This document shows, piece after piece, positions 31,553-62,278 of a stretch of 64,000 nt of DNA; position 1 is the stretch's first letter, and every line of letters begins with the position of its first letter. The notes beneath the pieces are model-generated. The model searched no databases and was not told the DNA's origin. It worked only from the letters and a program-made list of their open reading frames with translations. Origin of the DNA: a virus (taxonomy: Duplodnaviria > Caudoviricetes); the IMG/VR virus record IMGVR_UViG_3300037484_000435, positions 128,001-192,000 of that record, one strand, 5' to 3'. The position numbers and the translations under genes are program-made.

Positions 31553-33398
31553 ACTTCGCAGGCTTGATATTGAGCCCTTCTAAAAATCTGGAGGGCTTGG
31601 AATAAAACACACTCTTCCCTTCGACATAAGCTCTAGGGTAACACATGTAAAGTCTATTGCGTGCCCTAGTCATAGCCACATAAAAAAGACGGTGTTCTTC
31701 TTCCATATCCTTCTCAGACTCAAAACTCTTACTAGAAGGTAACCTGCCGTCTGTGAGGTTGACAATAAAAACATTATCCCACTCTAGCCCCTTGGCAGAA
31801 TGTATAGTAGACAGTGTTAGTTTATCTCCCTTACGAGCTTCGTCGTCGAAAGCATCAGAAGTGTACCAAGCATCAACAATATCTTGTAACTTAGGAGAAA
31901 TTCTCCACTGCACACAAAGGTTATCAATATCCTTTACGCGGGTCTCGTAAGCCTCAGCTTCCGACTTTAAATCCTTTTGGGAATTAAGCACCGCCTTATA
32001 ATGACTATGTATCTGGTCTATAGTTGTGGTTACATCACCTTCTTGGGTAAGTAACCAATAAAGATTACGAAGATTTTGTCCTACCTTCCCTTTAGCGTTC
32101 AGTCCATTAAGGCCATTTAATTCTACTTGCTCCAATATCTTTTTAGCGGTTTCCTTTCCTATACCCTTCTGGAACATAAGCAACCGTTTCCAAGCCCCTA
32201 AATCCTTCGGGTTTAATATAACCCGCAAATAAGAAATAAAATCCTTAATATGTCTAGCTTCTTTAATCTCCTGCCCGCCGTACTTCTTGTAGGGAATCCC
32301 TTTATTTACCAAAGCATACTCTAAACCCCGAGCGTCATAGTTACCTCGGTAAAGTATGCTGGTCTCACTGTGATTTAATAGGCCAAGAGTCTTTATGATG
32401 AAGTCACTCATTTGATATTGATTCTCGGCCACCACAATCTTGGGGGAGACTTTACTCTTAATCTCAGACTTTAATGGGTTCTCCAGTTTACCCAGATTCA
32501 AGCGTTTATAAAAAGAATTAACAGTCTTAATGATATTCTGATTGCTACGGTAATTCTGGTTTAATTTAATTATGCGGGCGTGCGGAAACTTCTCTAAAAA
32601 TGTATTTATATTATCAGGATTGGCCCCGCGAAACCCATAGATTGATTGGGCATAATCTCCCACAGCCGTTACAAATTCGTGCTCTTGGGTTAAAAGGTCA
32701 AGCATATTAGCCTGAAGAATATTAGTATCTTGATACTCGTCTACCAAGATATAACGAAGCTTCTGCCCGAGCATCTTTCGTATTTCGGGGCGGTTACACA
32801 ACATGGTATTAAATTCTACCAGTATGTCATCAAAGTCTAATAGGTCCTGCCTCTGTTTAAAAGTAGAGTATTCCTTCTGTAGACCCACTATCTTTTTTTC
32901 ATAATCAAGCCATGTCTTAGGCAATAAATCATGCAGAGCGACCCCTTTATTTACAACCTTGGAATAAATCTGCATTAACTCGTAAGGGTCGATACCCCCT
33001 TTGTCTAGTTTCAAGTCCTTAACTCGAACACGAAAGAAGGAACGTACTTCGCCCTCATCAATAACTTGTTGTCTGTTACCCGAGTAATGCCTTAAACTAT
33101 CCAGAGCAAAGGCGTGAAATGTGCCTCCAACTGGGTCAGGTAAATTCATACCAGATAAACTTCTTACGCGTTGCAACATTTCTTGTGCTGCTTTTTTCGT
33201 GAAAGTAAGTAGGAGTATGTTTTGTGGATGTACCCCGATAGTAGTTAAAAACAAAGTCTTGTAAGTAATCACGCGGGTCTTCCCGGTACCAGCCCCGGCC
33301 ACCACCAAACAAGGATTACCCACGTCCACCACAGCTTCCAACTGTTCTGGATTTAAGTCGTTAAGATATTCTGTCATGTTGATGCCGTCAGTTAGCAT
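31551..33398 (-). CDS. uvrD: UvrD/PcrA/Rep superfamily 1 DNA helicase
   Basis: LNPEQLEAV, AGAGTGKT, LTFTKKAA, LVDEYQD, VGDYAQSIYGFRGA, NYRS, STIHSAKGLEW, EEHRLFYVAMTRA. Confidence 0.95.
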   Translation of the reverse strand: MLTDGINMTEYLNDLNPEQLEAVVDVGNPCLVVAGAGTGKTRVITYKTLFLTTIGVHPQNILLLTFTKKAAQEMLQRVRSLSGMNLPDPVGGTFHAFALDSLRHYSGNRQQVIDEGEVRSFFRVRVKDLKLDKGGIDPYELMQIYSKVVNKGVALHDLLPKTWLDYEKKIVGLQKEYSTFKQRQDLLDFDDILVEFNTMLCNRPEIRKMLGQKLRYILVDEYQDTNILQANMLDLLTQEHEFVTAVGDYAQSIYGFRGANPDNINTFLEKFPHARIIKLNQNYRSNQNIIKTVNSFYKRLNLGKLENPLKSEIKSKVSPKIVVAENQYQMSDFIIKTLGLLNHSETSILYRGNYDARGLEYALVNKGIPYKKYGGQEIKEARHIKDFISYLRVILNPKDLGAWKRLLMFQKGIGKETAKKILEQVELNGLNGLNAKGKVGQNLRNLYWLLTQEGDVTTTIDQIHSHYKAVLNSQKDLKSEAEAYETRVKDIDNLCVQWRISPKLQDIVDAWYTSDAFDDEARKGDKLTLSTIHSAKGLEWDNVFIVNLTDGRLPSSKSFESEKDMEEEHRLFYVAMTRARNRLYMCYPRAYVEGKSVFYSKPSRFLEGLNIKPAK

Positions 33399-34326
33399 TC
33401 CCTGCTTGTTGAAGAGACTGTGGAGTTACACAACCAGTAAAGCTTTGCTCCATTACTGGATAACCTGAGGGGTCGAATTCAAATATATCCGCACGTTTGA
33501 TGAAATTCTCTAGCAAAACATTAGGGGTATAATCATGCTCCAAGGGCTCAGTGTAAAGTTCAAAATCCTTATTCTTTATATCCTCTAAACCTTTTTCAAA
33601 AATCATATCTATAGCTTTCTTTTCGAACCGCATATCAAAAGGAAAAAACATCGGTAAATCTATTGTGTTGGTGTGGTTAAATTGTAATATACTTCGTACC
33701 ATCTTTCCGACTGGATCCAAGTGCGAAGTGTGGTGAATGGTAACTTCCTCAATTGGTACAGGTTGATACTGTGGCATAGGAGCACCTTCACCATTCACTA
33801 CCCTTACCCCGTCATTTGAGTCTGGATGAAAAGTGGTTCTACGTATGTGGTTATGTGGCACTGCGTAACCTTGAAGGATATCATGAGCTAGATCTGGCCT
33901 ATTCCTGAAAACATGAGGTCCTTTTGAACTACACCCGTCCGCCCGATGATGGCGGTCACAATAGTAATTAAGAAGGCTGAAAGAAATCCCCGCACCGTTT
34001 TCGAGAGGATACCTCTTAACAATATCCTTCAACGATGGACCGTGGAAAGTAAAGATTTCATCCACGTCTAAAAACAAAACCACATCTGAATCTGCCAGTC
34101 TTAAAGCAGAGGTGAAACCACTTCCGAAGGGATTATCAAAGCAATTGAATAATGATTTCACATGTTTACGTACCTTCCCGTATCTGGATAAATCTACCTT
34201 ATCATATATAGACGTATCCAGAAAAACGAAGGAGTCCACATGGTCGTATAAACTCTCAATGGACTCGTATAAAGGTAATTTAACTGTTATAGGATCGCTA
34301 ATCATAGCGTAAGCAGTAATGAACAT
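33388..34326 (-). CDS. GT-A fold glycosyltransferase-like protein
   Basis: VLFLDVDEIF DxD motif, IHHTSH. Confidence 0.65.
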   Translation of the reverse strand: MFITAYAMISDPITVKLPLYESIESLYDHVDSFVFLDTSIYDKVDLSRYGKVRKHVKSLFNCFDNPFGSGFTSALRLADSDVVLFLDVDEIFTFHGPSLKDIVKRYPLENGAGISFSLLNYYCDRHHRADGCSSKGPHVFRNRPDLAHDILQGYAVPHNHIRRTTFHPDSNDGVRVVNGEGAPMPQYQPVPIEEVTIHHTSHLDPVGKMVRSILQFNHTNTIDLPMFFPFDMRFEKKAIDMIFEKGLEDIKNKDFELYTEPLEHDYTPNVLLENFIKRADIFEFDPSGYPVMEQSFTGCVTPQSLQQAGNAN

Positions 34327-35078
34327 TATATTTCCCCTTCTAATTTGTTATTTATTTCCCAATGCCTAACTCGATGACAATTCGCACAGTACAACACACA
34401 CTTATCTAATTCTTCTCTGACCTTTTTGGACATTGAGCGGTGCCGAGCCAGTAATGTTCCCAAATTCATTTCTTTCTCCTCAGAATCATGATGAAAATCA
34501 TAGACATCAAGAATCTCTGTTTCTTTTAAACCACATTTAATACATTTCCCACCTAAGTATTCGATGCAACTCCTTTTTGCGTTTATACGATCGACCTTAG
34601 ATTTCTCTGCATACTTTTTATTACAAGATTTACAATAGTTTTTGGACAAATCCTCTTTGGGAGACTTGCAGGAAACACAAAGCCCCTGTTCTTTTAATTT
34701 AATGGCCCGAATCTTACTCTTCTGGTACTTACATTTTCTACATTGTAACTCATACTTAAATTTACGCTTTAAATAGTCGAACTCAGAAATAGGTTTTAGA
34801 CGTTGACATGTACTACATAGTTGCTCAGTAGGAAACTCACGTGGTTTATTGTTTGCCCAACGTTCTAATGATTTCTCTTTTATTCTATCCTTATTTTTAG
34901 CATAATAACATCGAGTTTTTTGTCGGTTATTTTCTAAATTATTTGCCCATTTCATTTTGCTATACAGTCGGTTACACTCTTTGCAACTACAGCGAAGCCC
35001 GTCATTATGCGACCGATCCACAGAAAATTCGTCAACACTCTTCTCTATTTTACATTTGCTACACACCTTAGTCTCCAA
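34326..35078 (-). CDS. HNH homing endonuclease with multiple Zn fingers (family A-related)
   Basis: CSKC/CKEC, CSTC/CRKC, CVSC/CKSC; YLGGKCIKC..DFHH..EELDKCVLYCANCHRVRH. Confidence 0.82.
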   Translation of the reverse strand: METKVCSKCKIEKSVDEFSVDRSHNDGLRCSCKECNRLYSKMKWANNLENNRQKTRCYYAKNKDRIKEKSLERWANNKPREFPTEQLCSTCQRLKPISEFDYLKRKFKYELQCRKCKYQKSKIRAIKLKEQGLCVSCKSPKEDLSKNYCKSCNKKYAEKSKVDRINAKRSCIEYLGGKCIKCGLKETEILDVYDFHHDSEEKEMNLGTLLARHRSMSKKVREELDKCVLYCANCHRVRHWEINNKLEGEI

Positions 35079-35082
35079 AATA

Positions 35083-35295
35083 CTATTTTAACCTCTCACA
35101 ACCTTCTTGTTTTTGTTGAAATTGTTCTAAGTATTCCTCAAATTCTTTTGAGTTTATTCCTATATTCACTCCTGCACCACCAAAGGTACAAGACCACCCT
35201 TCAGATAAATCTGGGAGACCTCCTTTCCAATCCCCCCAGATGTGTGTAATAGTTCCTAAGTCTTTATTGTCTGGCATTCTCATCCTCCTCAACAA
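35083..35295 (-). CDS. hypothetical protein
   Basis: ORF track. Confidence 0.5.
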   Translation of the reverse strand: MLRRMRMPDNKDLGTITHIWGDWKGGLPDLSEGWSCTFGGAGVNIGINSKEFEEYLEQFQQKQEGCERLK

Positions 35296-35434
35296 GCCCC
35301 GTCTTTACATAGTTATCACAATCTTTACATTTCAGATATCCCTCTTTCTTATCTCCCGCCTTTACCCACAAAGGTAAACTCTCAAACAGTTCACCACCAC
35401 ACTTATCACACACTATCTTCTCCATCGCTCATAC

Positions 35435-35728
35435 CTAGTCGGGTAATTTAAATCCCTCGGACTCTACCTCTGAGTATATAATAGGCGGTGTGTATCCTAC
35501 TTTAGGTAAAGGATATTCAGTATAAGGTTTTTTATTTCTCGGCCCGTCAGCTGGGGGTTCTCCAACTAACCACGTTGTATCATGTGGCCCATCAAAAACA
35601 GACCAAGCATTAGGTTCCGTTTTGAAAGGCTTATCAAACAAACCGTCAGGGCAACGCTCTCCTGTATCCCGACAATAAAAATAACCTTTTTTTATTAAGC
35701 AATTGAGTTTTTCACACATTGCACTCAA
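35435..35728 (-). CDS. hypothetical protein
   Basis: ORF track; GGAG SD. Confidence 0.55.
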   Translation of the reverse strand: MSAMCEKLNCLIKKGYFYCRDTGERCPDGLFDKPFKTEPNAWSVFDGPHDTTWLVGEPPADGPRNKKPYTEYPLPKVGYTPPIIYSEVESEGFKLPD

Positions 35729-36669
35729 CTCCTATGCTTCTTTATCCAATTCAATTCATCTTCTAGGGAAAAGTCAGTCGCACAATTATCGGGTAAATTC
35801 TCCTTGAATTTAGATAATCCCTCAAAATCATCCACTTCAGTATCTGAGCTCACGACCCAACGCGTAGGTTTTAACCCCTCAGCAATTAGTTCTTGCTGTT
35901 TCTTCTCATTGGGCCAAGCCTTATCAGATTCATAGAGAGGAATCAATATTCTTTCTCTTAATTTATCCCCTTTTCTATATTGAATTACTTTTTCTTCCTT
36001 CCCATAAAAATTCATTTCTCCTCTCCTTCCTGGGATCAATGTTAACTTTCCAGACCTCAAGTCTTCATCAAACCAGCCGTCATGTAATTTTCTATGACAA
36101 TTGGCGCACACATACACACATTTCTGAAGTTCTGGCACAACAATTGTGTCCCAATCACGACTTATTAAGGTCGCCACAACGAAGTCTTTTTCGGCTGGAT
36201 CAACATGATGACAATCATACATTCGGTAACAACTTTCACTTACACCACATATGTAACAAGATTGCCCATAATACTCATGAATCTTTTTACTATATCGCCG
36301 CCTATAATCTGTGGCTACCGTATGTATTCTTTCCAGATTACGCTTACGATATTCCTTATTTTTCTCAGATAACTTGTCTCTATTCTGTTGACGATAACTA
36401 GTTTGGTAACATTTAATTTTTTCTACATTCTGTTCTTGATACTTTTTTGCGGACTCGATAATCTCTTGTCTATGTGTCTCGTAATATTTTGCGTTCTTCG
36501 TTGAAATTTTATCTTTATTTTTTAAATAGTATTCTTTCTTATATTGAGACTTACGTGTATCCTTTTCTTCAGTCAAACTATTGATACCCATATCTGAAGA
36601 CACCTCCCCCTTAATCAAAAAAATTCTATATAACTTCCACAATGAATTTGTCACTTGGTAGTTTAGCAA
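35725..36669 (-). CDS. HNH homing endonuclease (family A) fused in-frame to a downstream protein that has its own start at 36015
   Basis: CYICG..HHVDP..ELQKCVYVCANCHRKLH, then GGAAGGAGAGGAGAA-ATG internal start. Confidence 0.78.
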   Translation of the reverse strand: MLNYQVTNSLWKLYRIFLIKGEVSSDMGINSLTEEKDTRKSQYKKEYYLKNKDKISTKNAKYYETHRQEIIESAKKYQEQNVEKIKCYQTSYRQQNRDKLSEKNKEYRKRNLERIHTVATDYRRRYSKKIHEYYGQSCYICGVSESCYRMYDCHHVDPAEKDFVVATLISRDWDTIVVPELQKCVYVCANCHRKLHDGWFDEDLRSGKLTLIPGRRGEMNFYGKEEKVIQYRKGDKLRERILIPLYESDKAWPNEKKQQELIAEGLKPTRWVVSSDTEVDDFEGLSKFKENLPDNCATDFSLEDELNWIKKHRS

Positions 36670-37648
36670 ACGTGTAAATGTCCTTTATATCGCGGGGCCA
36701 TTCTGGTTCCTCAATAGAAACTTCCATCAAGGGGCCTAACGAGTGTGCATCATTAACTTCGATAAGGGGTAAATCAAGAGACAGCGGTGGTTTTAATTTT
36801 CCAATAAACTCTTCACCCCAACGATCCATAAAATAGCGACGGTTAATACTACTTTGGAACCGCATCTCCTCAACATCCATATTCACCGCGGGAATTCCTG
36901 GGTGTAACATTTTAGTTTTGTCTGTAATATCAAACCCAAAACCCGCCATACCCCACCGCAATAGAAAATCTAATTCACCGCTGTGGTCAAAGCCTCGGCT
37001 GAACACACGGTCAAAACCGTTTACTTTATCAAAATTCTTTTTGCTAACAACAAAAGAAAACAGATAGGGTGTGGGTGCGTATTGTGGATGAATCAGATAA
37101 ACCCACTGATCGCAGAAACGTGACCATACTGGCCCTAACACGGTAGTTATACTCGTTAGAGTCGTGTCTATGTTAGCAGTTCGTCCGACTCTGAGTAGGT
37201 CCCAAGGCTGAAAAAACATAACCAAGTCTCTTAGCCCCATTACACGGTCGTGCTCAACAAATTCCATACCGATATCCCAATTTAAAGTAGGCCTGTCGCC
37301 TGGGCACCCCCGACGAATAAACACTATCTTGGTATTGATGTGGTTTTTTATATCGCCCAATACAGATAAGATATCCGCTCGTCGCTCAATATCCGCAACA
37401 AATATAAACTGGTCGTGCTCTTGAATAATTCCTGGAAACTGTGCTATGGCACCCATCTGCTGGGCAAACATCTCAGGAGCCTGCGTACTGATTGCCCATA
37501 CAAAACTCACTGGCTCATTAGGCACAGGTTCATATAGGTGCGGGTAGATATCGTGCTTCTCCAAAAACTTATGGAAGGCCTCCATACGAGCATAGAAAGA
37601 CACGGTTTCTTTTTTATCTTCCATCATTTTTAATATTTGGTCATACAT
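36626..37648 (-). CDS. glycosyltransferase family 2-like protein (divergent)
   Basis: C-terminal FDKVNGFDRVF..GELDFLLRW..GF..H..NRRYFMDRWG pattern. Confidence 0.6.
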   Translation of the reverse strand: MYDQILKMMEDKKETVSFYARMEAFHKFLEKHDIYPHLYEPVPNEPVSFVWAISTQAPEMFAQQMGAIAQFPGIIQEHDQFIFVADIERRADILSVLGDIKNHINTKIVFIRRGCPGDRPTLNWDIGMEFVEHDRVMGLRDLVMFFQPWDLLRVGRTANIDTTLTSITTVLGPVWSRFCDQWVYLIHPQYAPTPYLFSFVVSKKNFDKVNGFDRVFSRGFDHSGELDFLLRWGMAGFGFDITDKTKMLHPGIPAVNMDVEEMRFQSSINRRYFMDRWGEEFIGKLKPPLSLDLPLIEVNDAHSLGPLMEVSIEEPEWPRDIKDIYTFAKLPSDKFIVEVI

Positions 37649-38199
37649 TATTGTTTCATCCTTTCTACAAAAGTACTGGTTGACGATCCCTTTAGATTCG
37701 GTCTGGGAATCAACAGGATATTACCATGTAACGAACTTTCCACATTCAATCCCCTCTTCTTATACACAGGAATAAGGTAGTCACATTTAGGGTCATAGCC
37801 CGGAACATTAGCTATATCCCAGTCCTCACCTTTGAACATGACCCCGTGGTACCTTTCCTTAATAATATGCGAAGCCATAATTCCGTAGTCCACTTCACTG
37901 TTCATCAGGAAGCAGGCGTCTACGTACTTGATAGAGTTTACTATATTGAGCCTATGGAATTCTGGGTATACTGGTCTACCTGGACCCTTATTCTCCCTGA
38001 CTAACCTATCAGTTCCTACACCTACTACCAAAAAGTCACACATTTCTCTCGCCTGTCTGAGGCACCAAATGTGGCCGAAATGGCTGAGGTCCCACACCCC
38101 GCTGTAGAAGCCAATAATGCCACCATGCTCGTATCCTATGTGCTCACAATTATATATAAGCCCGTCTATTGACGCGGCATCTTTTAAGTCGACAATCAT
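37648..38199 (-). CDS. cytidylyltransferase-superfamily nucleotidyltransferase (RfaE/TagD-like)
   Basis: GVWDLSHFGHIWCL (HIGH), LVVGVGTD, KGPGRP..R, KGEDW, GSSTS. Confidence 0.85.
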   Translation of the reverse strand: MIVDLKDAASIDGLIYNCEHIGYEHGGIIGFYSGVWDLSHFGHIWCLRQAREMCDFLVVGVGTDRLVRENKGPGRPVYPEFHRLNIVNSIKYVDACFLMNSEVDYGIMASHIIKERYHGVMFKGEDWDIANVPGYDPKCDYLIPVYKKRGLNVESSLHGNILLIPRPNLKGSSTSTFVERMKQ

Positions 38200-38211: not shown

Positions 38212-39117
38212 TTAAAACGGTAAGTCCAATTCCTTTCCTTGACCACTGGGGTCTTCGGTATTAGTGACCTGTCCGTCTTTTATGGTATACACTTTACTTA
38301 ATATGTTTGGTGTACCCCACTCTTGGGGCTCGCCGCTGATAACAAGGTTTCTATCGGGACTCAAACGTATGACATTCGCTTTGTCCATAATTTTGAGTCT
38401 GTCAAAAATCCGACGCCCCGCCGCTTCCCGAGCTGGTGGAGTCTTTGGAGGACCATGCCAGAGGTGAATAGCCTGTCCAGTTATTTCCTTCTCATACTCC
38501 CCGTAGTGGTTCTTCCAATGTTCCCGAAAGCACGTATCCTCGTATCCTACAACTAGACTAAACAGTTCATCTATACCACCCAATTCAATAAACTTATTGC
38601 GTGAGAATCCCGAACAAAAATAAAATTTACTACGGGAAAATGGACCGCCTTCGGCGTAGTGGTAGTGTTTCTCATAACCTGACATTATGCTGTCATAATC
38701 ACCAAACCACTCATCTCCCTCAGTAAAGTGGGTTCGAGCGTTATACATTCTCTTGTCATTAGCTTTAAGCCCTTCCGCAATCTCAGAAATAATCCACTCA
38801 TCTTTCAGGACCACTTCGGGGTCTGTCTTGATAACGTAGGGGTTAGAAACAACATGCCTTATCATGCTATTAAATCTAGATACGGGGTTATAGGACCGTT
38901 TGGCTAAAACAGTTTTTTGCATATCAAACTGAAGATATTTAAAAGTAAACACTTCCGAGTACCTATCAATCAGGGAAAGAAGATTGTCAGTACTACGTAC
39001 GTCTCCTATACAAATCTCTATATCGTTGGCTGGGTAATCTTGTCTAGAAATACTTTCTAAACAATATTTAAGTAGATGTGCCCTATTTCGTATTGAGATA
39101 ATTATTGAAAATTTCAT
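38212..39117 (-). CDS. glycosyltransferase family 2
   Basis: FSIIISIRNRAHLL..CLESI, KTDPE, GGIDELF..GYED, HLWH. Confidence 0.85.
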   Translation of the reverse strand: MKFSIIISIRNRAHLLKYCLESISRQDYPANDIEICIGDVRSTDNLLSLIDRYSEVFTFKYLQFDMQKTVLAKRSYNPVSRFNSMIRHVVSNPYVIKTDPEVVLKDEWIISEIAEGLKANDKRMYNARTHFTEGDEWFGDYDSIMSGYEKHYHYAEGGPFSRSKFYFCSGFSRNKFIELGGIDELFSLVVGYEDTCFREHWKNHYGEYEKEITGQAIHLWHGPPKTPPAREAAGRRIFDRLKIMDKANVIRLSPDRNLVISGEPQEWGTPNILSKVYTIKDGQVTNTEDPSGQGKELDLPF

Positions 39118-52541: not shown

Positions 52542-52571
52542 AATATATAACTAGTACACAAATTCATCTCA
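52542..52571 (-). promoter_or_regulatory. conserved 30-bp motif, copy 3
   Basis: minus strand TGAGATGAATTTGTGTACTAGTTATATATT; overlaps sulfotransferase stop. Confidence 0.7.
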
Positions 52572-53337: not shown

Positions 53338-53939
53338 GTATGGATAATCTTTACACCCTTTTCCTCTGCAAACCGAGTTATAGCGTCAGTAACACCCTGA
53401 AGGTGTCCGTAATCATCCAATATTATTACTCCTTTAGAAACTAGCCTCGGCCAAAAGAAATGTAGGGCATCTATAGTGGGTTGATATATATCCATGTCTA
53501 AGTACACAAAGCAAAACTGATCGTCACCCACTTCTGGGAGGGTATCTGGCACCATCCCTTTATGGATGATGATAGAAGGACAATCCTTAAGAAACCTTTT
53601 AACCTTTTCGTAAGGGGCCGACCATTCTCCCCCAGTATAAACACCGCCCGCCCAATTTATATTTAGATGAGGATGGTCGCTAATAACATAGTCTATTGTT
53701 GGGTCAGTTAACTCCACAGGTACCCCCTCAAAGGTATCAAAAACGTGTATTTTTCTACTATGACCTACAGCATTGGCAAGCAATTTTGCTGAGCCGCCCT
53801 TATAACTTCCCAACTCTGCAATTTCACCCTCTAAAGATTGTACAGTATCATTAACCCACGACCATAGATTCCACAAACGATCTGGTGTAACTAGTGTGTA
53901 ACCCTGTATTACTTTACACACGTCAAAAAAATTGCTCAT
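53304..53939 (-). CDS. TylF/MycF/NovP-family sugar O-methyltransferase
   Basis: AELGSYKGGS, FDTFEG, KGMVPDTL, YLDMDIY, ILDDY. Confidence 0.88.
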   Translation of the reverse strand: MSNFFDVCKVIQGYTLVTPDRLWNLWSWVNDTVQSLEGEIAELGSYKGGSAKLLANAVGHSRKIHVFDTFEGVPVELTDPTIDYVISDHPHLNINWAGGVYTGGEWSAPYEKVKRFLKDCPSIIIHKGMVPDTLPEVGDDQFCFVYLDMDIYQPTIDALHFFWPRLVSKGVIILDDYGHLQGVTDAITRFAEEKGVKIIHTCYMQCAIRKP

Positions 53940-54811
53940 TTTTTACCTCCACATTCTTCATAAGAAACATAACCAGTTCTCCCAAATTTATCACACCTAG
54001 AAAGAGCTGACATTGCTATGTCACACTTTCTTACCATCGATAAGGAAGCATCTTGGTAAACCCAATTTATAAATTTTAGTGCTTTGGCTCCCACAAAACG
54101 CATACCCCAAATATTTTTGTGCCTGCTCGGAGACTTAGTATGCGAACAATACTTATTGAACTCCGCTAAAATATATTCCAGTATAGCGTAAGAGCCAGAG
54201 ACTATACTAATCTCCAACATTTTCCAGTTACGCCTAAATCCATTTTTGTCAGTGTAATTACAGTTTGTAAATCCTATACTCCCATCCCCCTCTAGATAAC
54301 CTCTAATATAATGAGGTACCATGGTCTTTAAAATATTAGAAGGCGGTTTTAATATAAAAGTTTTATTGGGTATGATGCCGTGTCTACACAAATCCCCGCA
54401 AAACTCTTTACCGTAAATCACAAGTCGATAGTAGTAATAATTTTGTTTGTAAGTGCTATGAGTTTTGTAATACTTACCAACATGACCTTCACCCACAGCA
54501 TCTTTAATTTGAAATAAAATTTCACAATCTTTTTCACTCGCTACCAATTCAACCCTATACATACTCTTATCTATACTCGCATCCGCACCAAAAAACCCGA
54601 GCACATACGCTTTTTCCTCGGAATCTATCAGCGACATATCTATACTGTGCCTTATTCTATGCGGCCTACTGAGGCCTTTCTTTTGAGCCCGAATTTTTAT
54701 AGCATCATCAGTCCTGCCCCGCAATAGTTTCCTCAAATCCTCCCATTCAGCAGTTCTATAATGTTCTCCAAGTAGTATGTCTTCTGCTGAAGACCAACGA
54801 CAGTTCCCCAT
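53936..54811 (-). CDS. free-standing LAGLIDADG homing endonuclease with N-terminal Myb-like repeat
   Basis: KAYVLGFFGADA, HYIRGYLEGDG; WSSAEDILLGEHY. Confidence 0.88.
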   Translation of the reverse strand: MGNCRWSSAEDILLGEHYRTAEWEDLRKLLRGRTDDAIKIRAQKKGLSRPHRIRHSIDMSLIDSEEKAYVLGFFGADASIDKSMYRVELVASEKDCEILFQIKDAVGEGHVGKYYKTHSTYKQNYYYYRLVIYGKEFCGDLCRHGIIPNKTFILKPPSNILKTMVPHYIRGYLEGDGSIGFTNCNYTDKNGFRRNWKMLEISIVSGSYAILEYILAEFNKYCSHTKSPSRHKNIWGMRFVGAKALKFINWVYQDASLSMVRKCDIAMSALSRCDKFGRTGYVSYEECGGKK

Positions 54812-55779
54812 TATTTTTCCCCTTCTATTATATCTGGAAAACTATAGTCACCAGCAAACCACTTCTGCCGGTTTTCCTTATAGTTAGGATGAACACTATG
54901 TGTCTTGAGCCACTCAATATTCTCTCTTACATATGCAGGAGAATTTTTTTCAGTTAGTTCCACCCGCTCAAGTTTAAATCTGGTCGGGTCAATCTTCTCC
55001 CCCAATAGTGAACGAAACATGCTGTGGTTATAGTAGAGCCACTTATTGACATCATCCTTCAAAAAATTTGTGTGACCATACGTATTGAGTTTACGCCATA
55101 TATGTTTAGCACTGCTACAGGAATGATAATGGTAACCAGTCAACCCTCTAGGCATTAGATACCCCACAGCATGTTCTACTCTTGGTTGTTCTAGTCTAAT
55201 GTTACGTTGTTGTAAATAAGAAAGTTGGGTCCAAACCATACCGGGCCAATCACCGGGGCTACTAAACGTGTTGTCAAAATCATAAGCATAAAAAATAGGA
55301 TTAGGCCTTACAGGCTCCCCGTCATGTTCATACAAAGTTTCGCACATTATTGACCCCTTGTCAGGGTTAGCAAAATCTATAATCTCGTCTATATCAGAAA
55401 CTAGCAACCAAGTTTTAGGTGGATACTTGTTATATATATACTCCTTCTGAGCTTCTCTTTGGAGAAAAATAATCTCCCAATCCTCAACTTTAGGACGACA
55501 TTTACGCTCTATTTCTACTTCAATAATTTTTATCTTGGGCAAGAACCTTTCAAAACGTTTGTCGGTTTCTAGTATACCCTTTAAGACATGCGGAGTACCT
55601 TTGTAATCTCCCCTGAAAGAGTATGTGTTCTCAGTTATTACCCATTCATCCACCCAAGGGGATTCAACATGAAATTTTATTAACAACATATCTGTCTGGT
55701 AGGGTTCGAAGAAACAAAATGAGTCAACAATAATCATAGTCCGTTCCCCTTTCTTAAAGCGACAGCTCCGTCGCCGCAT
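54811..55779 (-). CDS. glycosyltransferase family 17-like
   Basis: VDEWVITENTYSFRG, QREAQ, VSDIDEI, GYHYHS, KLNTYGH. Confidence 0.75.
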   Translation of the reverse strand: MRRRSCRFKKGERTMIIVDSFCFFEPYQTDMLLIKFHVESPWVDEWVITENTYSFRGDYKGTPHVLKGILETDKRFERFLPKIKIIEVEIERKCRPKVEDWEIIFLQREAQKEYIYNKYPPKTWLLVSDIDEIIDFANPDKGSIMCETLYEHDGEPVRPNPIFYAYDFDNTFSSPGDWPGMVWTQLSYLQQRNIRLEQPRVEHAVGYLMPRGLTGYHYHSCSSAKHIWRKLNTYGHTNFLKDDVNKWLYYNHSMFRSLLGEKIDPTRFKLERVELTEKNSPAYVRENIEWLKTHSVHPNYKENRQKWFAGDYSFPDIIEGEK

Positions 55780-56327
55780 ATCTCCTGTACAGTGTAATGG
55801 TAATCTTTTATGAATTCGTCTACCGCCTTCTTTATCGTTCCCGCTCTCGGATAATCATGTATTACGAGATACCCTCGCGGAGATAAATGGGAGTTACAAA
55901 ACAACAAATCACTCATGGTTCCCTCGTAACTGTGGTCTCCGTCTATGAAACAGAAGCCCACGTTCAAATTGGGTATCGTACCTCTTAAATAAGTAGTTGA
56001 CCCCAACAAGGGAATAACACGCCCCTTGAGTTTGAACTTACGGTAAGTATCCATAAAGTTGTCAAAGTTCTTACCTATTGTAGCGGCCCTGTAATCCTCT
56101 AGGGGGTACCACAAATCTATTGCTAAAACTGTAAAAAATTGGGCTAAAATGACCGTTGAACAGCCCTTATAGGACCCAATTTCTATAACAAGGCCATCCT
56201 CCCCAAACTCCTCTGAAGCTTTCTTCGCCCACTTCTCAACAAACTCGTGCTCTGTGAACGGTATATCTTTAGGCTCCTGCCCAGGGGACAAAGCCCTTGG
56301 AACTTGTCTCCAGTCATAAATTCTCAT
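55734..56327 (-). CDS. class I SAM-dependent methyltransferase (Methyltransf_24-like)
   Basis: IEIGSYKGCST, FIDGDHSYEG, IHDY. Confidence 0.85.
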   Translation of the reverse strand: MRIYDWRQVPRALSPGQEPKDIPFTEHEFVEKWAKKASEEFGEDGLVIEIGSYKGCSTVILAQFFTVLAIDLWYPLEDYRAATIGKNFDNFMDTYRKFKLKGRVIPLLGSTTYLRGTIPNLNVGFCFIDGDHSYEGTMSDLLFCNSHLSPRGYLVIHDYPRAGTIKKAVDEFIKDYHYTVQEICGDGAVALRKGNGL

Positions 56328-56328
56328 G

Positions 56329-58788
56329 CTACTTCACCCCCTTGGTGTTCAAACTATCTATATCTTCTCGCAAATGCCTATTTACCGCCTCGGCAGACCA
56401 ATGTTCTTCCGAGTACTTCAGGGAATTTAGCGATAACTCCCTTTGTAAATTACAATCATTTAAAATACCTATTACATTCTTGGCGAATTGTTCCCGTGTA
56501 TCACCGATGAGAACGTTTTCCCCGTCTGTCAACCCTATTCCTTCGGCCCCTATTGTAGTAGTCACTACAGGTAACCCATGAGACATAGCCATGGCTATCT
56601 TCCCTTTAAACCCCGCCCCAAACCTGATAGGAGCTACCAGTAAAGAAGAGTAATGCAAGAATACGGTTAAGTCTTCAACATGTCCTTTAACACAGATATT
56701 CTTGTCGTCATGAAGAGCTATTATGTCCTCGGGGGCTTTATCGCCTATCACAGTCAGCACCGCGTCAGGAACCTCCTTCTTTACTAGAGGAAAAACTTCA
56801 GAAGTGAACCAACGAATTGCATCCTGATTTGGAGTATGTTGCATACCACCAATAAAAATTATCTGATTTCTAAATTTAGACTCGCGATTAGAATCGGGTG
56901 GTGGATTAGGAGGACAATACCAAGGCCATACAGATACTTTAGTATCTGGTAATTCCTCTAATAAAATACCTTTTTCATAATCACTTACCGTTACCAACAA
57001 ATCACTATCCCTAATAATAGTAAACTCAGTTTGTTTAGTCTTATCCGATTGTAATAAGAGAGCATAATCATCATTTACTTTCGCTGTTCTCTGTTCTCGA
57101 AGATAGTGGAGGTCATGACAATAATAAACGATAGGAGCCTTTGTAAAGTTTCTTACCTGTTTGATATAATTTATGGCTAAAGGTCTGGCCAAAATAACCA
57201 AATCAATTGTATGTCCTAGGTCGGCCAGTGTATACTCGAAAGGAAAATTGGCTATATTGCAAATCTCCCAATTATTCTGCCACAAAGTCTTTATGTATTT
57301 TACATTTTGTGCCCGCCAGTTAGGATCGTCCGACCAGTAACGTATCTTAAATCCAAGGTCTTGCAAACGGGAACAATAAGAGAACACAGCGTAATCTCCT
57401 GCGTTGGTATCGTATTCAGGAATATGCCAATCCACCCACAAAGCGGTAGGTTTAAGAATTTCGGCTAGCAGGGGGCAATCAAAATCATCTTGCTCCCCTA
57501 ATTGAATAACATATTTCCCTTCCATAGCGTTAGACTTAGACTTGAGAGTAGACAGGTCATAGGTTTTAGATATAAAATAATCATAGAAACGAGGACGTTC
57601 TGCAAGTATCTTCTCCAACATGCTTTCACTCTCATATAACATAACCTCAACGGTATCGGGGATCCAGTCGTGTACGGACATCCAGTCGTCTACACCTACG
57701 TGGAGAGGAAAAAGTGTGACAAAAAAATCTCTATTGACCAAATCCTTTATGTAATCCATAATAGCAGTATCAGCATAGTGAGGACGGGGTACAAAATCAT
57801 TTATAATCAAAACTCTACCACGATACCTCTTGTTGGTTCTAGCGTAAACTGGTGGATTTGACTTGTGATAACCAGTAGCAAGTATTTCTTGATGCCTTCC
57901 CTTCAGAATCTTAGTGTGTTCCTTTACTAGGGTGTCAACACTATTCGAATCGCTACTCCCATACTCATAATGTAACACCTTTGCATTAGGGTCATAGATA
58001 ATTTTATACCCAGATTCTCTGGCACGTAAACAGTAGTCGGATTCCTCGCAGTAACCAGGTGAATATACTTCGTCAAATTTATTTAATTCAAAAAATAATT
58101 CTCTAGGAGTCATAAAACAAGAACCCGAAACGTAATCTACTTCCCTAACAAAATTAACGTCCCCAATATCTGGGTTACGCCCTTTACTATATTCCGCGGC
58201 CTCCCCATCACTCCATAGTATTCCCCCCGCGTCCTGTACTGTATTATCTAAACGTCGTATTTGTGCTCCTACAACCCCAATATTCGTTTGCTTCCAATTT
58301 CGTATACGTTTAAGTAAACTTTGTATACAATTATAGGTCACTAACGCGTCATCATTCAACAGAAGAATATATTCGCCCGAAGTCTGTTCCGCTCCGATAT
58401 TAACACCAGCAACAAAGCCTTGGTTCCCCTCGTTATTAATAATTTTTACATTCTCTAATCTAGAAAGCAATTCCTTATTTTTATCAGAACTTCCATTATT
58501 AGATATAATAATTTCGTAGGAACAATCAGTAACCCAACGGCGTAAAGCCATAAAACATAATAGCTCTAAAGCTGTTTGAGTGTAAGTCACAATTATAATA
58601 CTAACTTCGGGTTTCTCAAAAAAAGGAAACACTATTTTTTTATTTGATTTTAAAAAAGCCTCTAACTGCTGCTCTGCCTTACCTAAAAATTGCTCCTTAA
58701 GCGTGGGTGGTGGAGGTGCTACTGGTGTAGGGGGTTTCTGAGTTATAACAAACTCCTTTACCTTATTTTTCTTTTTATTTTTTTTCAT
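56329..58788 (-). CDS. multidomain glycosyltransferase GT2 + GT4
   Basis: GT2: VSIIIV, NQGFVAGVN, LLLNDD, YVSGSC, YCEESDYC; GT4: FIGGMQHTPNQDA, APIRFGAGFKGKI..G.PVVTT..GAEG. Confidence 0.9.
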   Translation of the reverse strand: MKKNKKKNKVKEFVITQKPPTPVAPPPPTLKEQFLGKAEQQLEAFLKSNKKIVFPFFEKPEVSIIIVTYTQTALELLCFMALRRWVTDCSYEIIISNNGSSDKNKELLSRLENVKIINNEGNQGFVAGVNIGAEQTSGEYILLLNDDALVTYNCIQSLLKRIRNWKQTNIGVVGAQIRRLDNTVQDAGGILWSDGEAAEYSKGRNPDIGDVNFVREVDYVSGSCFMTPRELFFELNKFDEVYSPGYCEESDYCLRARESGYKIIYDPNAKVLHYEYGSSDSNSVDTLVKEHTKILKGRHQEILATGYHKSNPPVYARTNKRYRGRVLIINDFVPRPHYADTAIMDYIKDLVNRDFFVTLFPLHVGVDDWMSVHDWIPDTVEVMLYESESMLEKILAERPRFYDYFISKTYDLSTLKSKSNAMEGKYVIQLGEQDDFDCPLLAEILKPTALWVDWHIPEYDTNAGDYAVFSYCSRLQDLGFKIRYWSDDPNWRAQNVKYIKTLWQNNWEICNIANFPFEYTLADLGHTIDLVILARPLAINYIKQVRNFTKAPIVYYCHDLHYLREQRTAKVNDDYALLLQSDKTKQTEFTIIRDSDLLVTVSDYEKGILLEELPDTKVSVWPWYCPPNPPPDSNRESKFRNQIIFIGGMQHTPNQDAIRWFTSEVFPLVKKEVPDAVLTVIGDKAPEDIIALHDDKNICVKGHVEDLTVFLHYSSLLVAPIRFGAGFKGKIAMAMSHGLPVVTTTIGAEGIGLTDGENVLIGDTREQFAKNVIGILNDCNLQRELSLNSLKYSEEHWSAEAVNRHLREDIDSLNTKGVK

Positions 58789-60237: not shown

Positions 60238-60246
60238 ACTCTTTCC

Positions 60247-61252: not shown

Positions 61253-61264
61253 CAACCAAGTCAG

Positions 61265-62278
61265 TTATTTTTTATGAACCCTTTCTCTATACCACTCTAC
61301 CGTCTTACCCACTGCTTCCCTTACAGGGGTCGGCTCCCATTCTACACCTGCTTTCTTCAATACGCCCAAAAGCTTTGTGTTGTCCAAAACTTTATGCATT
61401 TGGCCTGTAGGTTTATTAGTATCAAAATGTATCTTCCCACTAAAACCAGTCACATCCTTTATTGCTACTGCTAATTCTTCTATGGTAGTGCCAATCCCAG
61501 TAGAAATATTAAGGGGACCAATTTCCTCAAAATTATTGATAATGTCAATAAACAATTTTCCAAAATCACCAGCATAAATAAAATCTCTGGTAACGTTAGG
61601 ATTTCCCCACACAGTTACACTGTCATACCCCTCATCACAAGCCTCAATAAAACGTTGTATAAGAGCCATTGCAACGTGGGATTCTTGTTCGAGACAATTA
61701 TCCCATTTACCGATAAGATTAGTAGGCAAGAGTATTGTTGTTTTAATTCCAAATTGTTTCTTGTATACGTCCGCCGCGATAAGCAAAGTTTTCTTAGCAA
61801 AACTGTACCCCAAAGAAGTTTCCACTGGTAACCCGTCCCACATCTCTCCTTCTTTATAAGGCGTAATCTTGTCAGGTTTTAGTGCATAGGAACAACCACC
61901 CATCAACATAATAAGTTTTTCAACAACCCTGTTGGGAGCGGCACAAGTTTCTAACATGTTCATTCCCATCATGAGATTTTGCCAAAAATAAGTGGCTTGT
62001 CGTTCCATGTTGTCCTTAATCCCACCTGATTTACCAGCCAAATGTATAACTGTACGAATGGGACCATGATTAGCCTCAATAGAATTAAACATTGTAGTAA
62101 CATGATTGAGCCGAGTCAAATCAAAAAATTTTGAGCCGTTTATAGTTACTATATCCGCAAATTTCCAACGATTTTCTATTTCGCCTATTAAGTTCTTCGC
62201 AATGAACCCAGTGTCTCCTGTTATGAGGACACGACCTGAGAAGGGAATACCCCTCTTTCTGTTAGTTCCTACCATCAA
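61265..62278 (-). CDS. GDP-L-fucose synthase (Fcl/WcaG)-family epimerase/reductase
   Basis: LITGDTGFIA, FDLT, HLAGKSGGIKDN, GYSFAKK, PTNLIG, VWGNP.VTRDFIY, LNISTG. Confidence 0.88.
   Translation of the reverse strand: MMVGTNRKRGIPFSGRVLITGDTGFIAKNLIGEIENRWKFADIVTINGSKFFDLTRLNHVTTMFNSIEANHGPIRTVIHLAGKSGGIKDNMERQATYFWQNLMMGMNMLETCAAPNRVVEKLIMLMGGCSYALKPDKITPYKEGEMWDGLPVETSLGYSFAKKTLLIAADVYKKQFGIKTTILLPTNLIGKWDNCLEQESHVAMALIQRFIEACDEGYDSVTVWGNPNVTRDFIYAGDFGKLFIDIINNFEEIGPLNISTGIGTTIEELAVAIKDVTGFSGKIHFDTNKPTGQMHKVLDNTKLLGVLKKAGVEWEPTPVREAVGKTVEWYRERVHKK

Follow-up and report, generated by a model that had tools for sequence, protein, structure and literature searches.

To our knowledge, bacterial surface polysaccharides are the only known source of GDP-heptose and of Cj1427-type chemistry. 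The reference chemistry for these enzymes is that of Campylobacter (PMC10680097). Glycans have been found in phages as well: mycobacteriophages bear them on capsid and tail tube (Freeman 2023, cited in PMC12619734), and phage glycosyltransferases adding mono- and di-heptose to 5hmC have been documented (bioRxiv 10.1101/2023.12.21.572611). The genome discussed here, that of an uncultured phage of 545 kb rated 100% complete, carries a glycan island of ~50 kb. Judged by its genes, the island appears to be best explained as a fully soluble, self-contained glycan assembly line of a clade of very large phages.

Extent, conservation and phage genes of the island

The window, i.e., the whole stretch of DNA analysed (64,000 nucleotides; positions 128,001 to 192,000 of IMG/VR record IMGVR_UViG_3300037484_000435), holds part of the island, which runs from window position 33388 to about 83368 (genome 161.4-211.4 kb), past the window end. 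The end at 62278 given in the initial annotation was wrong, as the genes carry on to genome position 211368; the gene classes named there were all found in place, every one on the minus strand. The whole island contains at least nine glycosyltransferase genes, at least six methyltransferases, a sulfotransferase and an APS kinase, 13 homing endonuclease genes and, as sugar-nucleotide genes, those for GmhA, an HddA-type kinase, an HddC-type nucleotidyltransferase, an RfaE-II-like transferase, a Cj1427-like SDR and an Fcl-type epimerase/reductase. DnaJ, primase, DnaB, RecA and clamp genes flank it on one side and UvrD, nuclease and PolA genes on the other. It lies outside the head or tail module, and this position among replication and recombination genes gives no pointer to virion proteins.

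At least six independent phage contigs or assemblies, from at least six samples, show the block in synteny, with protein identities of 27-82%. They include relatives of ~250 kb, two of which are phages of 256-260 kb that are 96-97% complete. The shared order is sulfotransferase/APS kinase/methyltransferases, Cj1427-like, Fcl-like, GT2-GT4, methyltransferase, SDR and RNase HII, followed by nucleotidyltransferase, kinase, GmhA, GT2, GT-A, GT-A, PD-(D/E)XK, SDR and PolA. Methyltransferases, sulfotransferase and extra glycosyltransferases vary among the relatives, while the core glycosyltransferase trio is kept. The relatives avoid different restriction sites and, therefore, probably infect different hosts.

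The following phage genes and homing endonuclease genes are interleaved with the sugar genes:

34326..36669, minus strand: two HNH homing endonuclease genes (34326-35078, 35725-36669; phrog_2255 1e-27, 1e-16) and small ORFs
39917..40870, minus strand: free-standing LAGLIDADG endonuclease (LAGLIDADG_3 / LAGLIDADG_1)
41909-42958, 48476-49543, 53936-54811, 60247-61233 and 63398-64390: further LAGLIDADG genes (LAGLIDADG_3 / LAGLIDADG_1)
45806-46780: HNH endonuclease (phrog_2255)
49525..50403, minus strand: terminase-large-subunit-like ATPase, no nuclease domain (Terminase_6N, E 4.4e-4)
51075..51707, minus strand: RNase HII (RNase_HII 6.4e-37)

The HNH genes at 34326-36669 are missing from the same place in relatives. 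L003 and L007 have orthologues of the terminase-like ATPase (30-31% identity) in the corresponding place, and RNase HII is kept within the island in all relatives (56-59% identity in L003, L005, L007 and L008). An ADP-ribosylglycohydrolase gene and a DUF4326 gene also lie within the island.

The initial annotation had allowed for a host capsule locus with export genes, mis-assembled onto phage DNA, and the nearest characterised relatives of the enzymes are indeed bacterial capsule enzymes. This candidate was rejected and its probability is negligible: the same gene order is found between the same phage replication flanks in at least six independent assemblies. Moreover, base composition and strand skew stay even, without a GC break at the island, export genes are absent, phage-type homing endonucleases are interspersed throughout, and the HddA-type kinase is only 26-32% identical to bacterial HddA.

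Sugar-nucleotide genes and the proposed pathway

The following genes could supply the activated sugar:

37648..38199, minus strand: RfaE-domain-II / TagD-like nucleotidyltransferase (CTP_transf_like 1.1e-10; rfaE_dom_II 73 bits vs cut-off 181; TagD 35 bits)
43061..43885, minus strand: extended SDR, epimerase/reductase type (Epimerase 1.1e-8; RmlD_sub_bind)
43852..44337, minus strand: DUF5662 protein (PF18907 7.5e-31; invariant H..HD..HxH..HH..D pattern)
45106..45864, minus strand: GmhA, sedoheptulose-7-phosphate isomerase (SIS_2 1.5e-18; PRK13936 148 bits; TIGR00441 130 bits)
46728..47720, minus strand: HddA-type GHMP kinase, heptose-7-phosphate kinase (GHMP_kinases_N; top NCBIfam match HddA 61 bits, cut-off 600)
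47755..48483, minus strand: HddC-type sugar-1-phosphate nucleotidyltransferase (NTP_transferase 6.6e-14; HddC model 68 bits, cut-off 300)
61265..62278, minus strand: Fcl-like GDP-sugar 3,5-epimerase/4-reductase (GDPFucSynFcl 167 bits, cut-off 500; PDB GDP-L-fucose synthases 7.5e-38)
L001:448-1464, beyond the window end: Cj1427-like SDR (PDB 6vo6/6vo8, 1.8e-73, 250 bits; next chain 67 bits)

GmhA matches PDB phosphoheptose isomerases (6e-31), and the alignment includes the GGS, STSG and QExH blocks. The top PDB matches of the HddA-type kinase are the heptose kinases 4usm/4usk, 3k85 and 4n3o, and 32 metagenomic homologues (45-71% identity) were found on contigs of up to 361 kb. The HddC-type enzyme has an intact LAGGRGSR motif and matches best 5xhw/6jq8, a "6-deoxy-D-mannoheptose pathway protein" (1.4e-18). 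The Fcl-like enzyme, which has 47-50% identity in relatives, contains YxxxK and the SHV histidine. Structures 6VO6/6VO8, matched by the SDR beyond the window, are what we take to be Cj1427, the GDP-heptose C4-dehydrogenase. The RfaE-II-like transferase (72-76% identity) and the SDR at 43061-43885 (57-59%) recur in L003 and L008, where the latter adjoins the DUF5662 and RfaE-II-like genes; all three thus co-occur in the window and both relatives. The DUF5662 protein is a candidate metal-dependent phosphohydrolase. All pathway enzymes score far under the NCBIfam equivalog cut-offs, so that the assignments are at family level and substrates could differ; at that level, the GmhA, HddA-type and HddC-type matches bear out the GDP-heptose route proposed in the initial annotation.

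In the proposed pathway, GmhA would convert sedoheptulose-7-P to D-glycero-D-manno-heptose-7-P and the HddA-type kinase would form the 1,7-bisphosphate, both steps having family-level support. GmhB, already reported to be lacking from the window, was absent when the full genome and four relatives were searched; the 7-phosphatase step must, therefore, come from host GmhB or an unrecognised phage phosphatase. The Cj1427-like SDR may then oxidise C4, and the Fcl-like enzyme may carry out C3/C5 epimerisation and C4 reduction; no separate cupin epimerase was found. These steps would yield a modified GDP-heptose of an L-configured type.

Glycosyltransferases and tailoring enzymes

The following genes could build and decorate a glycan:

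33388..34326, minus strand: GT-A fold glycosyltransferase "unk312", no Pfam match, kept in relatives
36626..37648, minus strand: GT-A-like glycosyltransferase "unk340", remote evidence, clade-restricted
38212..39117, minus strand: GT2 glycosyltransferase (Glycos_transf_2 1.5e-9), kept in all relatives
39114..39908, minus strand: possible GT-A-like protein, 264 aa ("ELVIVEW...LNPDCLW" GT-A-like pattern, by eye only)
40926..41879, minus strand: GT2 glycosyltransferase, paralogue of 38212-39117 (Glycos_transf_2 2.9e-5, 24.5 bits)
52564..53337, minus strand: PAPS-dependent carbohydrate sulfotransferase (Sulfotransfer_2 23.6 bits vs cut-off 22)
53304..53939, minus strand: TylF-family sugar O-methyltransferase (TylF 2.3e-22)
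54811..55779, minus strand: GT17-like glycosyltransferase, weak (Glyco_transf_17 E 0.0026, 17 bits, under cut-off; SDIDEI motif)
55734..56327, minus strand: Methyltransf_24 / TylF-like methyltransferase (Methyltransf_24 3.5e-13)
56329..58788, minus strand: two-domain GT2 + GT4 glycosyltransferase, 819 aa, polymerase-like architecture (Pfam)
L001:2060-2650, beyond the window end: APS kinase

The earlier count of about seven glycosyltransferases holds, with four recognised by Pfam (one weakly), two by remote evidence and one by eye. A profile of four "unk312" orthologues has an invariant DxDE and matches GmaR (E 0.005). The AF2 model of "unk312" (pLDDT 61, good in the N-terminal 200 aa) matches SunS/ThuS (2e-8), then TarS/RmlT/TarP, and its nearest Atlas clusters are viral GT2-like. 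The match to the peptide-glycosyltransferase fold is unspecific, the teichoic-acid glycosyltransferases scoring close behind. For "unk340", only ~10 clusters at E<=1e-10 were found among 1.8 billion representatives; its Atlas features point to GT2, 10 of 10 distant matches tested have Pfam Glycos_transf_2 or Glyco_transf_7C, and hhalign against the neighbouring GT2 was weak. The GT2 at 38212-39117 has orthologues of 44-56% identity in L003, L005 and L007, and its paralogue is 26-32% identical to the GT2 of relatives. Searches of Pfam, PHROG and NCBIfam with the 39114-39908 protein gave no match. The two-domain enzyme, with Glycos_transf_2 at residues 63-199, Glyco_transf_4 at 470-622 and Glyco_trans_1_4 at 641-778, aligns end to end with its L005 counterpart at 51% identity.

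The two methyltransferases and the sulfotransferase reported before were also confirmed. The 55734-56327 methyltransferase has 60% identity in L005. The sulfotransferase contains the 5'-PSB motif "HIPRTAGSS" and the 3'-PB motif "REPLHRFLSLY" (REP..R..S.Y), and has orthologues in L005, L008 and the P0002 contig. ATP sulfurylase was not found in the phage. The nine or more glycosyltransferases, including the GT2/GT-A/GT-A trio and the GT2-GT4 enzyme, might assemble an oligo- or polysaccharide that would be O-methylated by the TylF-type methyltransferases and sulfated, with PAPS coming from the phage APS kinase and host APS.

Candidate acceptors of the predicted glycan

A strong hydrophobic segment (Kyte-Doolittle 1.9 over 19 residues) was found in 0 of 76 island ORFs and in 75 of 751 elsewhere, the chance of which is about 3e-4. 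The whole genome encodes no flippase-, polymerase- or exporter-like protein and no initiating transferase or ligase; among its polytopic proteins, only one is as large as a transporter, a BPD_transp_1 importer permease encoded 320 kb from the island. The lack of membrane and export components described initially is thus genome-wide. The step from glycosyltransferases lacking TM helices to a cytoplasmic acceptor fails, however. Ordinary O-antigen and capsule glycosyltransferases are soluble or peripheral, lack TM helices and act on lipid-linked acceptors, so that the phage could borrow a host primer, flippase and ligase.

The main rival to glycosylation of virion proteins, unlikely as it is, is that the soluble phage enzymes make modified GDP-heptose and that, at the inner membrane face, they lengthen or substitute a lipid-linked glycan of the host (O-antigen, capsule, LPS core or S-layer glycan). 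The host would provide the initiating transferase, the ligase and either a flippase or an ABC exporter. Sugar clusters of jumbo cyanophages, with epimerases, nucleotidyltransferases and many glycosyltransferase families, have been read as such envelope remodelling (PMC7824862), and bacterial capsules are where heptose, Cj1427-type and TylF-type chemistry is typically found (PMC10680097). Without GmhB and ATP sulfurylase, the phage depends on a host already making heptose and APS, and the island lies among replication, not virion, genes. On the other hand, none of the membrane-linked functions is encoded in the complete genome, and the exporters and ligases of a host usually accept no glycan but their own. 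Clusters matching a host should turn over, whereas the trio and the heptose gene order are kept across divergent phages with probably different hosts. The nearest neighbours of the divergent GT-A families are mostly viral and one family is clade-confined. This and the conserved trio support a phage-encoded acceptor, for which the best matches of "unk312" to peptide- or protein-directed enzymes (SunS/ThuS, GmaR) are a weak lead.

Phage DNA, the other acceptor considered in the initial annotation, is disfavoured, and decoration of its bases against restriction enzymes or CRISPR is highly improbable. Heptosyl-5hmC is a precedent, and the island, RNase HII included, sits within the replication module. 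However, neither a thymidylate-synthase-family (ThyA-type) hydroxymethylase/hydroxylase nor a TET/JBP dioxygenase (the TET search lacking a positive control) was found in the genome or four relatives; genes for ThyX and a UDG-family enzyme are present, in keeping with ordinary thymine. Glycans known from DNA range from mono- to trisaccharides, which the glycosyltransferases, polymerase-like enzyme, methyltransferases and sulfation far exceed. The strong avoidance of GCGC, CCGG, GATC, GTAC and CTCGAG fits restriction-exposed DNA, a weak argument since hypermodified T4 avoids GATC too.

Slightly less improbable is a product or acceptor outside the virion: an oligosaccharide left free, RNA, a glycosylated phage protein of non-structural kind, or a small molecule carrying the sugars. 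The last could be a natural product that contains heptose and is modified by the TylF-type methyltransferases. The tailoring of natural-product sugars typically involves TylF-family methyltransferases, SDRs and glycosyltransferases, for jumbo cyanophages Iyer et al. predicted a secondary-metabolite cluster derived from sugars (PMC7824862), and the ADP-ribosylglycohydrolase and DUF4326 genes may also be counted in favour. Aglycone-forming genes (PKS, NRPS or similar) are absent from the island Pfam matches, however, and the glycosyltransferase number and the two-domain enzyme suggest that a long glycan is made, not a glycoside.

Were the host envelope remodelled, superinfection would be blocked or cell properties altered during a long infection. 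The plausible and preferred acceptor, with a probability somewhat short of even, is a phage virion protein (capsid, decoration, tail or fibre), which would be glycosylated in the cytoplasm before lysis. The particle may then expose a glycan with a conserved inner and a variable, decorated outer part, resembling those of mycobacteriophage capsids and giant-virus fibrils.

Extent, setting and conservation of the island

The virus record, of which the window covers bases 128001-192000, is a single sequence of 545,322 bp, rated 100% complete by CheckV, with 40 tRNA genes and a G+C content of 42%; every gene from about 128 kb to 385 kb of the genome is carried on the minus strand. A cluster of heptose and glycan genes had initially been delimited to window positions 33388-62278. 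The end at 62278 had to be revised: since further island genes were found in L001, the segment just beyond the window (genome 192001-212000), the island spans genome positions 161.4-211.4 kb, about 50 kb. No break in composition or GC skew is seen across it. The island is enclosed by the replication module, with DnaJ, primase, DnaB, RecA and the sliding clamp above it and UvrD, a PD-(D/E)XK nuclease, another SDR and PolA, then ThyX, UDG, a second RNase HII and Rad52, below it. The first tail and fibre genes are located about 11 kb further up. Thirteen free-standing homing endonuclease genes are present in the island (window 34326-64390 and L001:2596-15745), namely nine LAGLIDADG paralogues (six in the window, three in L001) and four HNH genes (three and one, respectively), while the same stretch in relatives holds 0-2. 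No host gene is apparently split by them, and the adjoining enzymes are full length when compared with those of the relatives.

The concern that the island might be a mis-assembled host capsule locus was dispelled by its synteny in six neighbourhoods and by the divergence of its kinase from bacterial HddA. The kinase has 32 metagenomic homologues with 45-71% identity, on contigs of up to 361 kb; bacterial HddA is only 26-32% identical. Six neighbourhoods fetched from different samples share one gene order: sulfotransferase/APS kinase/methyltransferases, Cj1427-like SDR, Fcl-like enzyme, GT2-GT4, methyltransferase, SDR and RNase HII, followed by (a terminase-like ATPase), nucleotidyltransferase, kinase, GmhA, GT2, GT-A, GT-A, nuclease, SDR and PolA. 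Two of the relatives represent phages of 256-260 kb at 96-97% completeness. In a set of 50,697 GenBank phage records, matches to the kinase were confined to four unannotated entries named 'Bacteriophage sp.', all of human fecal origin; those to GmhA numbered eight. LR756504 (636 kb) was rejected as a carrier of the island: it has GmhA, but the surrounding 40 kb share nothing else. A search for distant DNA similarity between window 43-49 kb and GenBank phages gave one 81-bp match at chance level. Single-protein scans of IMG/VR with the kinase and with the PD-(D/E)XK nuclease yielded no match, and an alignment-based scan of IMG/VR returned four relatives only.

The SDR below the island (27729-28646) lies between the PD-(D/E)XK nuclease and PolA both here and in relatives. 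A ManC-like nucleotidyltransferase with a beta-helix tail (window 5082-6134; NTP_transferase 3.8e-5) is set amid DNA-repair genes, 27 kb below the island. Of the two RNase HII paralogues in the window (6169-6828 and 51075-51707), the island copy is kept in all relatives. Between it and the heptose genes, an ATPase resembling the terminase large subunit is encoded without the nuclease domain (49525-50403); orthologues with 30-31% identity occupy the same place in two relatives' loci, L003 (7877-8692) and L007 (8535-9455). In L003, a TnpB gene (OrfB_IS605 / Cas12f-like; 19077-20435) directly follows the three conserved glycosyltransferase genes. The island also contains an ADP-ribosylglycohydrolase (L001:11969-12769; 3e-36) and a DUF4326 protein (window 50776-51078), which was without a match when the loci of five relatives were compared. 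Two stand-alone ORFs of 85-89 amino acids without signal peptide (window 59577-59834 and 63103-63372) resemble single Big_1-type Ig-like domains; the first is 52% identical in the relative locus L005. Both are possible modules for binding the glycan or accepting it. A tRNA with anticodon CTA, of the amber suppressor type and labelled Pyl by ARAGORN, is encoded outside the window at genome 47126-47202. The island genes are read without trouble under table 11.

Sugar-nucleotide, transferase and sulfation enzymes

The gene classes named in the initial annotation, from the heptose enzymes to the sulfotransferase, were each recovered where it had placed them by searches of Pfam, NCBIfam, PHROGs and PDB sequences. 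All enzyme scores are well under the NCBIfam equivalog cut-offs; the assignments are therefore at the family level. The sugar-nucleotide enzymes are the following.

37648-38199, minus strand: RfaE-domain-II/TagD-like transferase
43061-43885, minus strand: SDR
45106-45864, minus strand: GmhA (PRK13936, 148 bits; TIGR00441, 130 bits; PDB phosphoheptose isomerases at 6e-31, with the GGS/STSG/QExH blocks aligned)
46728-47720, minus strand: GHMP kinase (best NCBIfam match HddA, 61 bits against a cut-off of 600; best PDB matches the heptose kinases 4usm/4usk, 3k85 and 4n3o)
47755-48483, minus strand: nucleotidyltransferase (best PDB match the Yersinia '6-deoxy-D-mannoheptose pathway protein' 5xhw/6jq8, 1.4e-18)
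61265-62278, minus strand: Fcl-family enzyme (GDPFucSynFcl, 167 bits; PDB GDP-fucose synthases at 7.5e-38)
L001:448-1464: Cj1427-like SDR (PDB 6vo6/6vo8 at 1.8e-73, 250 bits; next chain 67 bits)

The last two PDB entries we take to be Cj1427, a C4-dehydrogenase. GmhA scores below both equivalog cut-offs and has the sequence features of a sedoheptulose-7-phosphate isomerase. The motif-II loop of the kinase reads KLGLGTS. Against the HddC model, the nucleotidyltransferase reaches 68 bits (cut-off 300), a tie with mannose-1-P guanylyltransferase. The Fcl-family enzyme retains YxxxK and the SHV histidine, and Campylobacter-type PDB entries (7m13 and others) match it more weakly, at about 1e-17. 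No RmlC-type cupin C3/C5-epimerase (Cj1430/MlghB type) was detected genome-wide (dTDP_sugar_isom, PF00908, at E≤1). As the cupin is missing and the reductase is closest to bifunctional GDP-fucose synthases, with both motifs kept, we infer that the Fcl-like enzyme alone may both epimerise and reduce.

The absence of gmhB from the window, noted initially, extends to the complete genome, in which no HAD-IIIA (TIGR01662) or HAD_2 match was obtained at E≤1, and to four relatives, without a HAD-IIIA match at E≤0.1; in the search controls, all 14 genomes tested were positive. Two substitutes were considered. The DUF5662 protein (window 43852-44337), of a mostly viral family, has an invariant H..HD..HxH..HH..D pattern, which suggests a candidate metal-dependent phosphohydrolase. 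Its AF2 model has a pLDDT of 38, a PDB profile search found no match, and the Atlas gave only DUF5662 clusters. It was rejected as a GmhB substitute, being missing from relatives that keep GmhA, kinase and transferase (L005), and on the same grounds it would at best serve a sub-module formed with the RfaE-II-like transferase and the SDR at 43061-43885. These three genes occur together in the window, L003 and a further relative's locus, L008, only, and may feed a second activated sugar. The 256-aa ORF beside gmhA (44342-45112) was likewise rejected, as it has no family match, is coiled-coil/Cys-rich and is not conserved in relatives. The genome encodes no PfkB kinase; an ADP-heptose route was rejected for this reason, and the RfaE-II-like enzyme is thereby left without its usual partner.

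The glycosyltransferases, methyltransferases and sulfation enzymes are the following.

33388-34326, minus strand: GT-A enzyme (invariant DxDE; profile match to the flagellin glycosyltransferase GmaR)
36626-37648, minus strand: GT-A enzyme
38212-39117, minus strand: glycosyltransferase by Pfam (conserved GT2)
40926-41879, minus strand: glycosyltransferase by Pfam
52564-53337, minus strand: Sulfotransfer_2 protein (above cut-off; both PAPS-binding motifs, 5'-PSB and 3'-PB)
53304-53939, minus strand: TylF/Methyltransf_24 methyltransferase
54811-55779, minus strand: glycosyltransferase by Pfam (weak)
55734-56327, minus strand: TylF/Methyltransf_24 methyltransferase
56329-58788, minus strand: two-domain glycosyltransferase by Pfam
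L001:2060-2650 (genome 194060-194650): APS kinase, cysC (2.8e-29)
L001:3950-4756, 5631-6260, 9273-10013 and 9986-10687: four further methyltransferases
L001:15796-16755: GT47/CgeB-like protein
L001:16763-17947 and 17947-19368: GT4 enzymes

The conserved unnamed proteins at 33388-34326 and 36626-37648 proved to be GT-A enzymes. As hhalign against the neighbouring GT2 was not significant for either, this assignment rests on other evidence. The predicted model of the first best matches SunS/ThuS, then TarS, RmlT and TarP. The second comes from a family with about ten clusters in a set of 1.8 billion representatives, and all of its distant relatives tested are GT2/Glyco_transf_7C proteins. With the 819-aa GT2-GT4 protein, a PDB sequence search gave only generic GT2 matches.

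By sequence, both elements of PAPS-dependent glycan sulfation are encoded: a sulfotransferase with PAPS motifs and a PAPS supply. No ATP sulfurylase or CysD was found above cut-off in the genome, so APS must be derived from the host. The cysC gene lies within about 13 kb of the sulfotransferase gene here and, in L007, immediately next to one, a context which suggests that it supplies PAPS for glycan sulfation. In surveys, phage cysC has been counted as a sulfur-cycle auxiliary gene (PMC13172472).

The acceptor of the glycan

Phage glycosyltransferases have been shown to produce heptosylated 5hmC, and phage DNA therefore had to be considered as the acceptor (Pyle et al., bioRxiv 10.1101/2023.12.21.572611). 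In the DNA glycan clusters of phages, a C5-methyltransferase with a TET-type dioxygenase, or a ThyA homologue, creates the hydroxyl to which mono- to trisaccharides are added (Pyle et al.). The island resembles such clusters in having glycosyltransferases related to LPS/teichoic-acid enzymes and a cytidylyltransferase-type enzyme; heptose is among the sugars transferred in those clusters. The known routes, however, need a ThyA-family enzyme or a TET/JBP dioxygenase (bioRxiv 10.1101/2023.12.21.572611), and neither (PF00303, PF12851) was matched in this genome and four relatives, although in the TET/JBP search no control genome passed the cut-off, so that its sensitivity is unproven. The hydroxymethyl-pyrimidine or TET/JBP gene elsewhere in the genome that, according to the initial annotation, would point to DNA was thus not encountered, within the reach of that search. 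ThyX and UDG are both encoded, and no DNA glycan is known to require machinery on anything like this scale; both points argue against DNA. No member of the T4-type DNA glycosyltransferase family is among the Pfam matches of the window and L001; a GT-A or GT-B fold in itself says nothing about the acceptor.

Restriction-site avoidance is pronounced in the whole genome, with observed/expected ratios of 0.22 for GCGC, 0.36 for CCGG, 0.47 for GATC and 0.61 for GTAC, and a single CTCGAG against 47 expected. Among the 256 tetramers, the six at the bottom are all palindromic, and relatives avoid partly different sets. As T4, the control with hypermodified DNA, likewise avoids GATC, this avoidance is weak evidence against a DNA acceptor.

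The initial annotation had reported no membrane or export components, and this holds for the island and the entire genome by hydropathy scan and Pfam. In the scan, which is crude (Kyte-Doolittle ≥1.9 over 19 residues), none of the 76 island ORFs scored, against 75 of 751 ORFs elsewhere. An initiating phosphoglycosyltransferase, flippase, polymerase and exporter were sought genome-wide, and no polytopic protein of more than 300 aa was found; the sole protein with six transmembrane segments is a BPD_transp_1 ABC-importer permease, 320 kb away from the island. The further step, from glycosyltransferases without transmembrane helices to a cytoplasmic acceptor, does not follow, as a glycan for the host envelope and one for the virion would equally do without them.

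For jumbo-cyanophage clusters, the host surface has been favoured as the target in the published reading (PMC7824862). Here we lean towards a phage-encoded acceptor rather than the host envelope, on three indirect grounds. Across phages with differing avoided sites, the heptose genes and the three conserved glycosyltransferases keep their order, in contrast to the variable decorating enzymes; the divergent GT-A families are viral or clade-specific; and one GT-A enzyme most resembles peptide- or protein-directed glycosyltransferases. Soluble phage-encoded glycosyltransferases, with or without methyltransferases, are a feature of virion glycosylation of the mycobacteriophage type and are encoded here. 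It is conceivable, at somewhat under even odds, that this clade of jumbo- and megaphages coats its own particle (the capsid, a tail that may be micrometres long, or the fibres) with a heptose-containing polysaccharide that bears sulfate and O-methyl groups and is assembled wholly in the host cytoplasm by a virus-encoded pathway.

Relation to known systems

The capsular heptose of Campylobacter jejuni is made by GmhA/HddA/GmhB/HddC, after which the Cj1427 C4-dehydrogenase, the cupin Cj1430 (C3/C5-epimerase) and the Fcl-family Cj1428 (C4-reductase) convert GDP-heptose to other stereoisomers (PMC10680097). The phage would share the order of the chemistry, with isomerase, GHMP kinase and guanylyltransferase-type enzyme all best matched by heptose enzymes, and it encodes a strong Cj1427-type SDR as well as an Fcl-family reductase. 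In Campylobacter capsules, too, the sugar is O-methylated. The phage differs in lacking GmhB, the cupin epimerase and genes for Kps-type export or a lipid anchor, in a reductase nearer to bifunctional GDP-fucose synthases than to Cj1428, in added sulfation, and in being phage-encoded, with 26-40% identity to the bacterial enzymes. To our knowledge, the nucleotide-heptose route is otherwise known from bacterial capsules. The autotransporter heptosyltransferases TibC/AAH carry out cytoplasmic protein O-heptosylation from nucleotide-heptose without a lipid carrier, using ADP-heptose and a single dedicated transferase family.

Mycobacteriophages glycosylate their capsid and tail-tube proteins in the cytoplasm by means of soluble glycosyltransferases of their own (Freeman et al. 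2023, PMC10527164, as cited in PMC12619734). The two systems share soluble phage-encoded glycosyltransferases and the lack of involvement of an export system; a few genes and host nucleotide sugars suffice there, in contrast to about 50 kb, an own nucleotide-heptose route, at least nine glycosyltransferases and sulfation in the island. Some mycobacteriophages reportedly also employ methyltransferases. We know of demonstrated targets of phage glycan clusters only for small mycobacteriophage systems (virion proteins) and DNA glycosyltransferases.

Jumbo cyanophages carry sporadic and polymorphic 'LPS / capsular polysaccharide modification' clusters with PfkB kinases and cupin isomerases (Iyer et al. 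2021, PMC7824862). They, too, are large, combine SDR epimerases/dehydratases and nucleotidyltransferases with several families of glycosyltransferases, and lack a target established by experiment (PMC7824862). The island differs from them by its GHMP kinase route without PfkB or cupin, its conserved syntenic core and the addition of APS kinase and sulfotransferase. Giant viruses have autonomous glycosylation machinery for the fibrils of Megavirinae and the capsid glycans of chloroviruses (Chem Rev 2022, PMC9614988). They are alike in a virus-encoded nucleotide-sugar pathway with many glycosyltransferases and methyltransferases and in complex particle glycans made without the host secretory pathway; their hosts are eukaryotic, their sugars differ, and there is no evidence of common descent. 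We are not aware of reports of heptose or sulfate in giant-virus glycans.

In conclusion, this kind of system is already known from the glycan clusters of phages and giant viruses and from mycobacteriophage virion glycosylation. New is a conserved island of about 50 kb that joins a nucleotide-heptose route, a C4-oxidation/epimerisation branch, many glycosyltransferases, O-methylation and PAPS-dependent sulfation without export parts; in a literature search, no description of phage GDP-heptose genes or of glycan sulfation by phages turned up. Its enzymes are a source of new modified GDP-heptoses. A glycan on the host surface would mean that the phage takes over the synthesis of envelope glycans with unusual completeness. 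The system is of interest mainly if the glycan proves to be on the virion: it would then be without precedent on a tailed phage both as a sulfated and as a heptose glycan, no glycosylation system known from a bacterial virus would be more elaborate, it would change how phage cysC is read, and 'viral self-glycosylation' would reach from giant eukaryotic to bacterial viruses.
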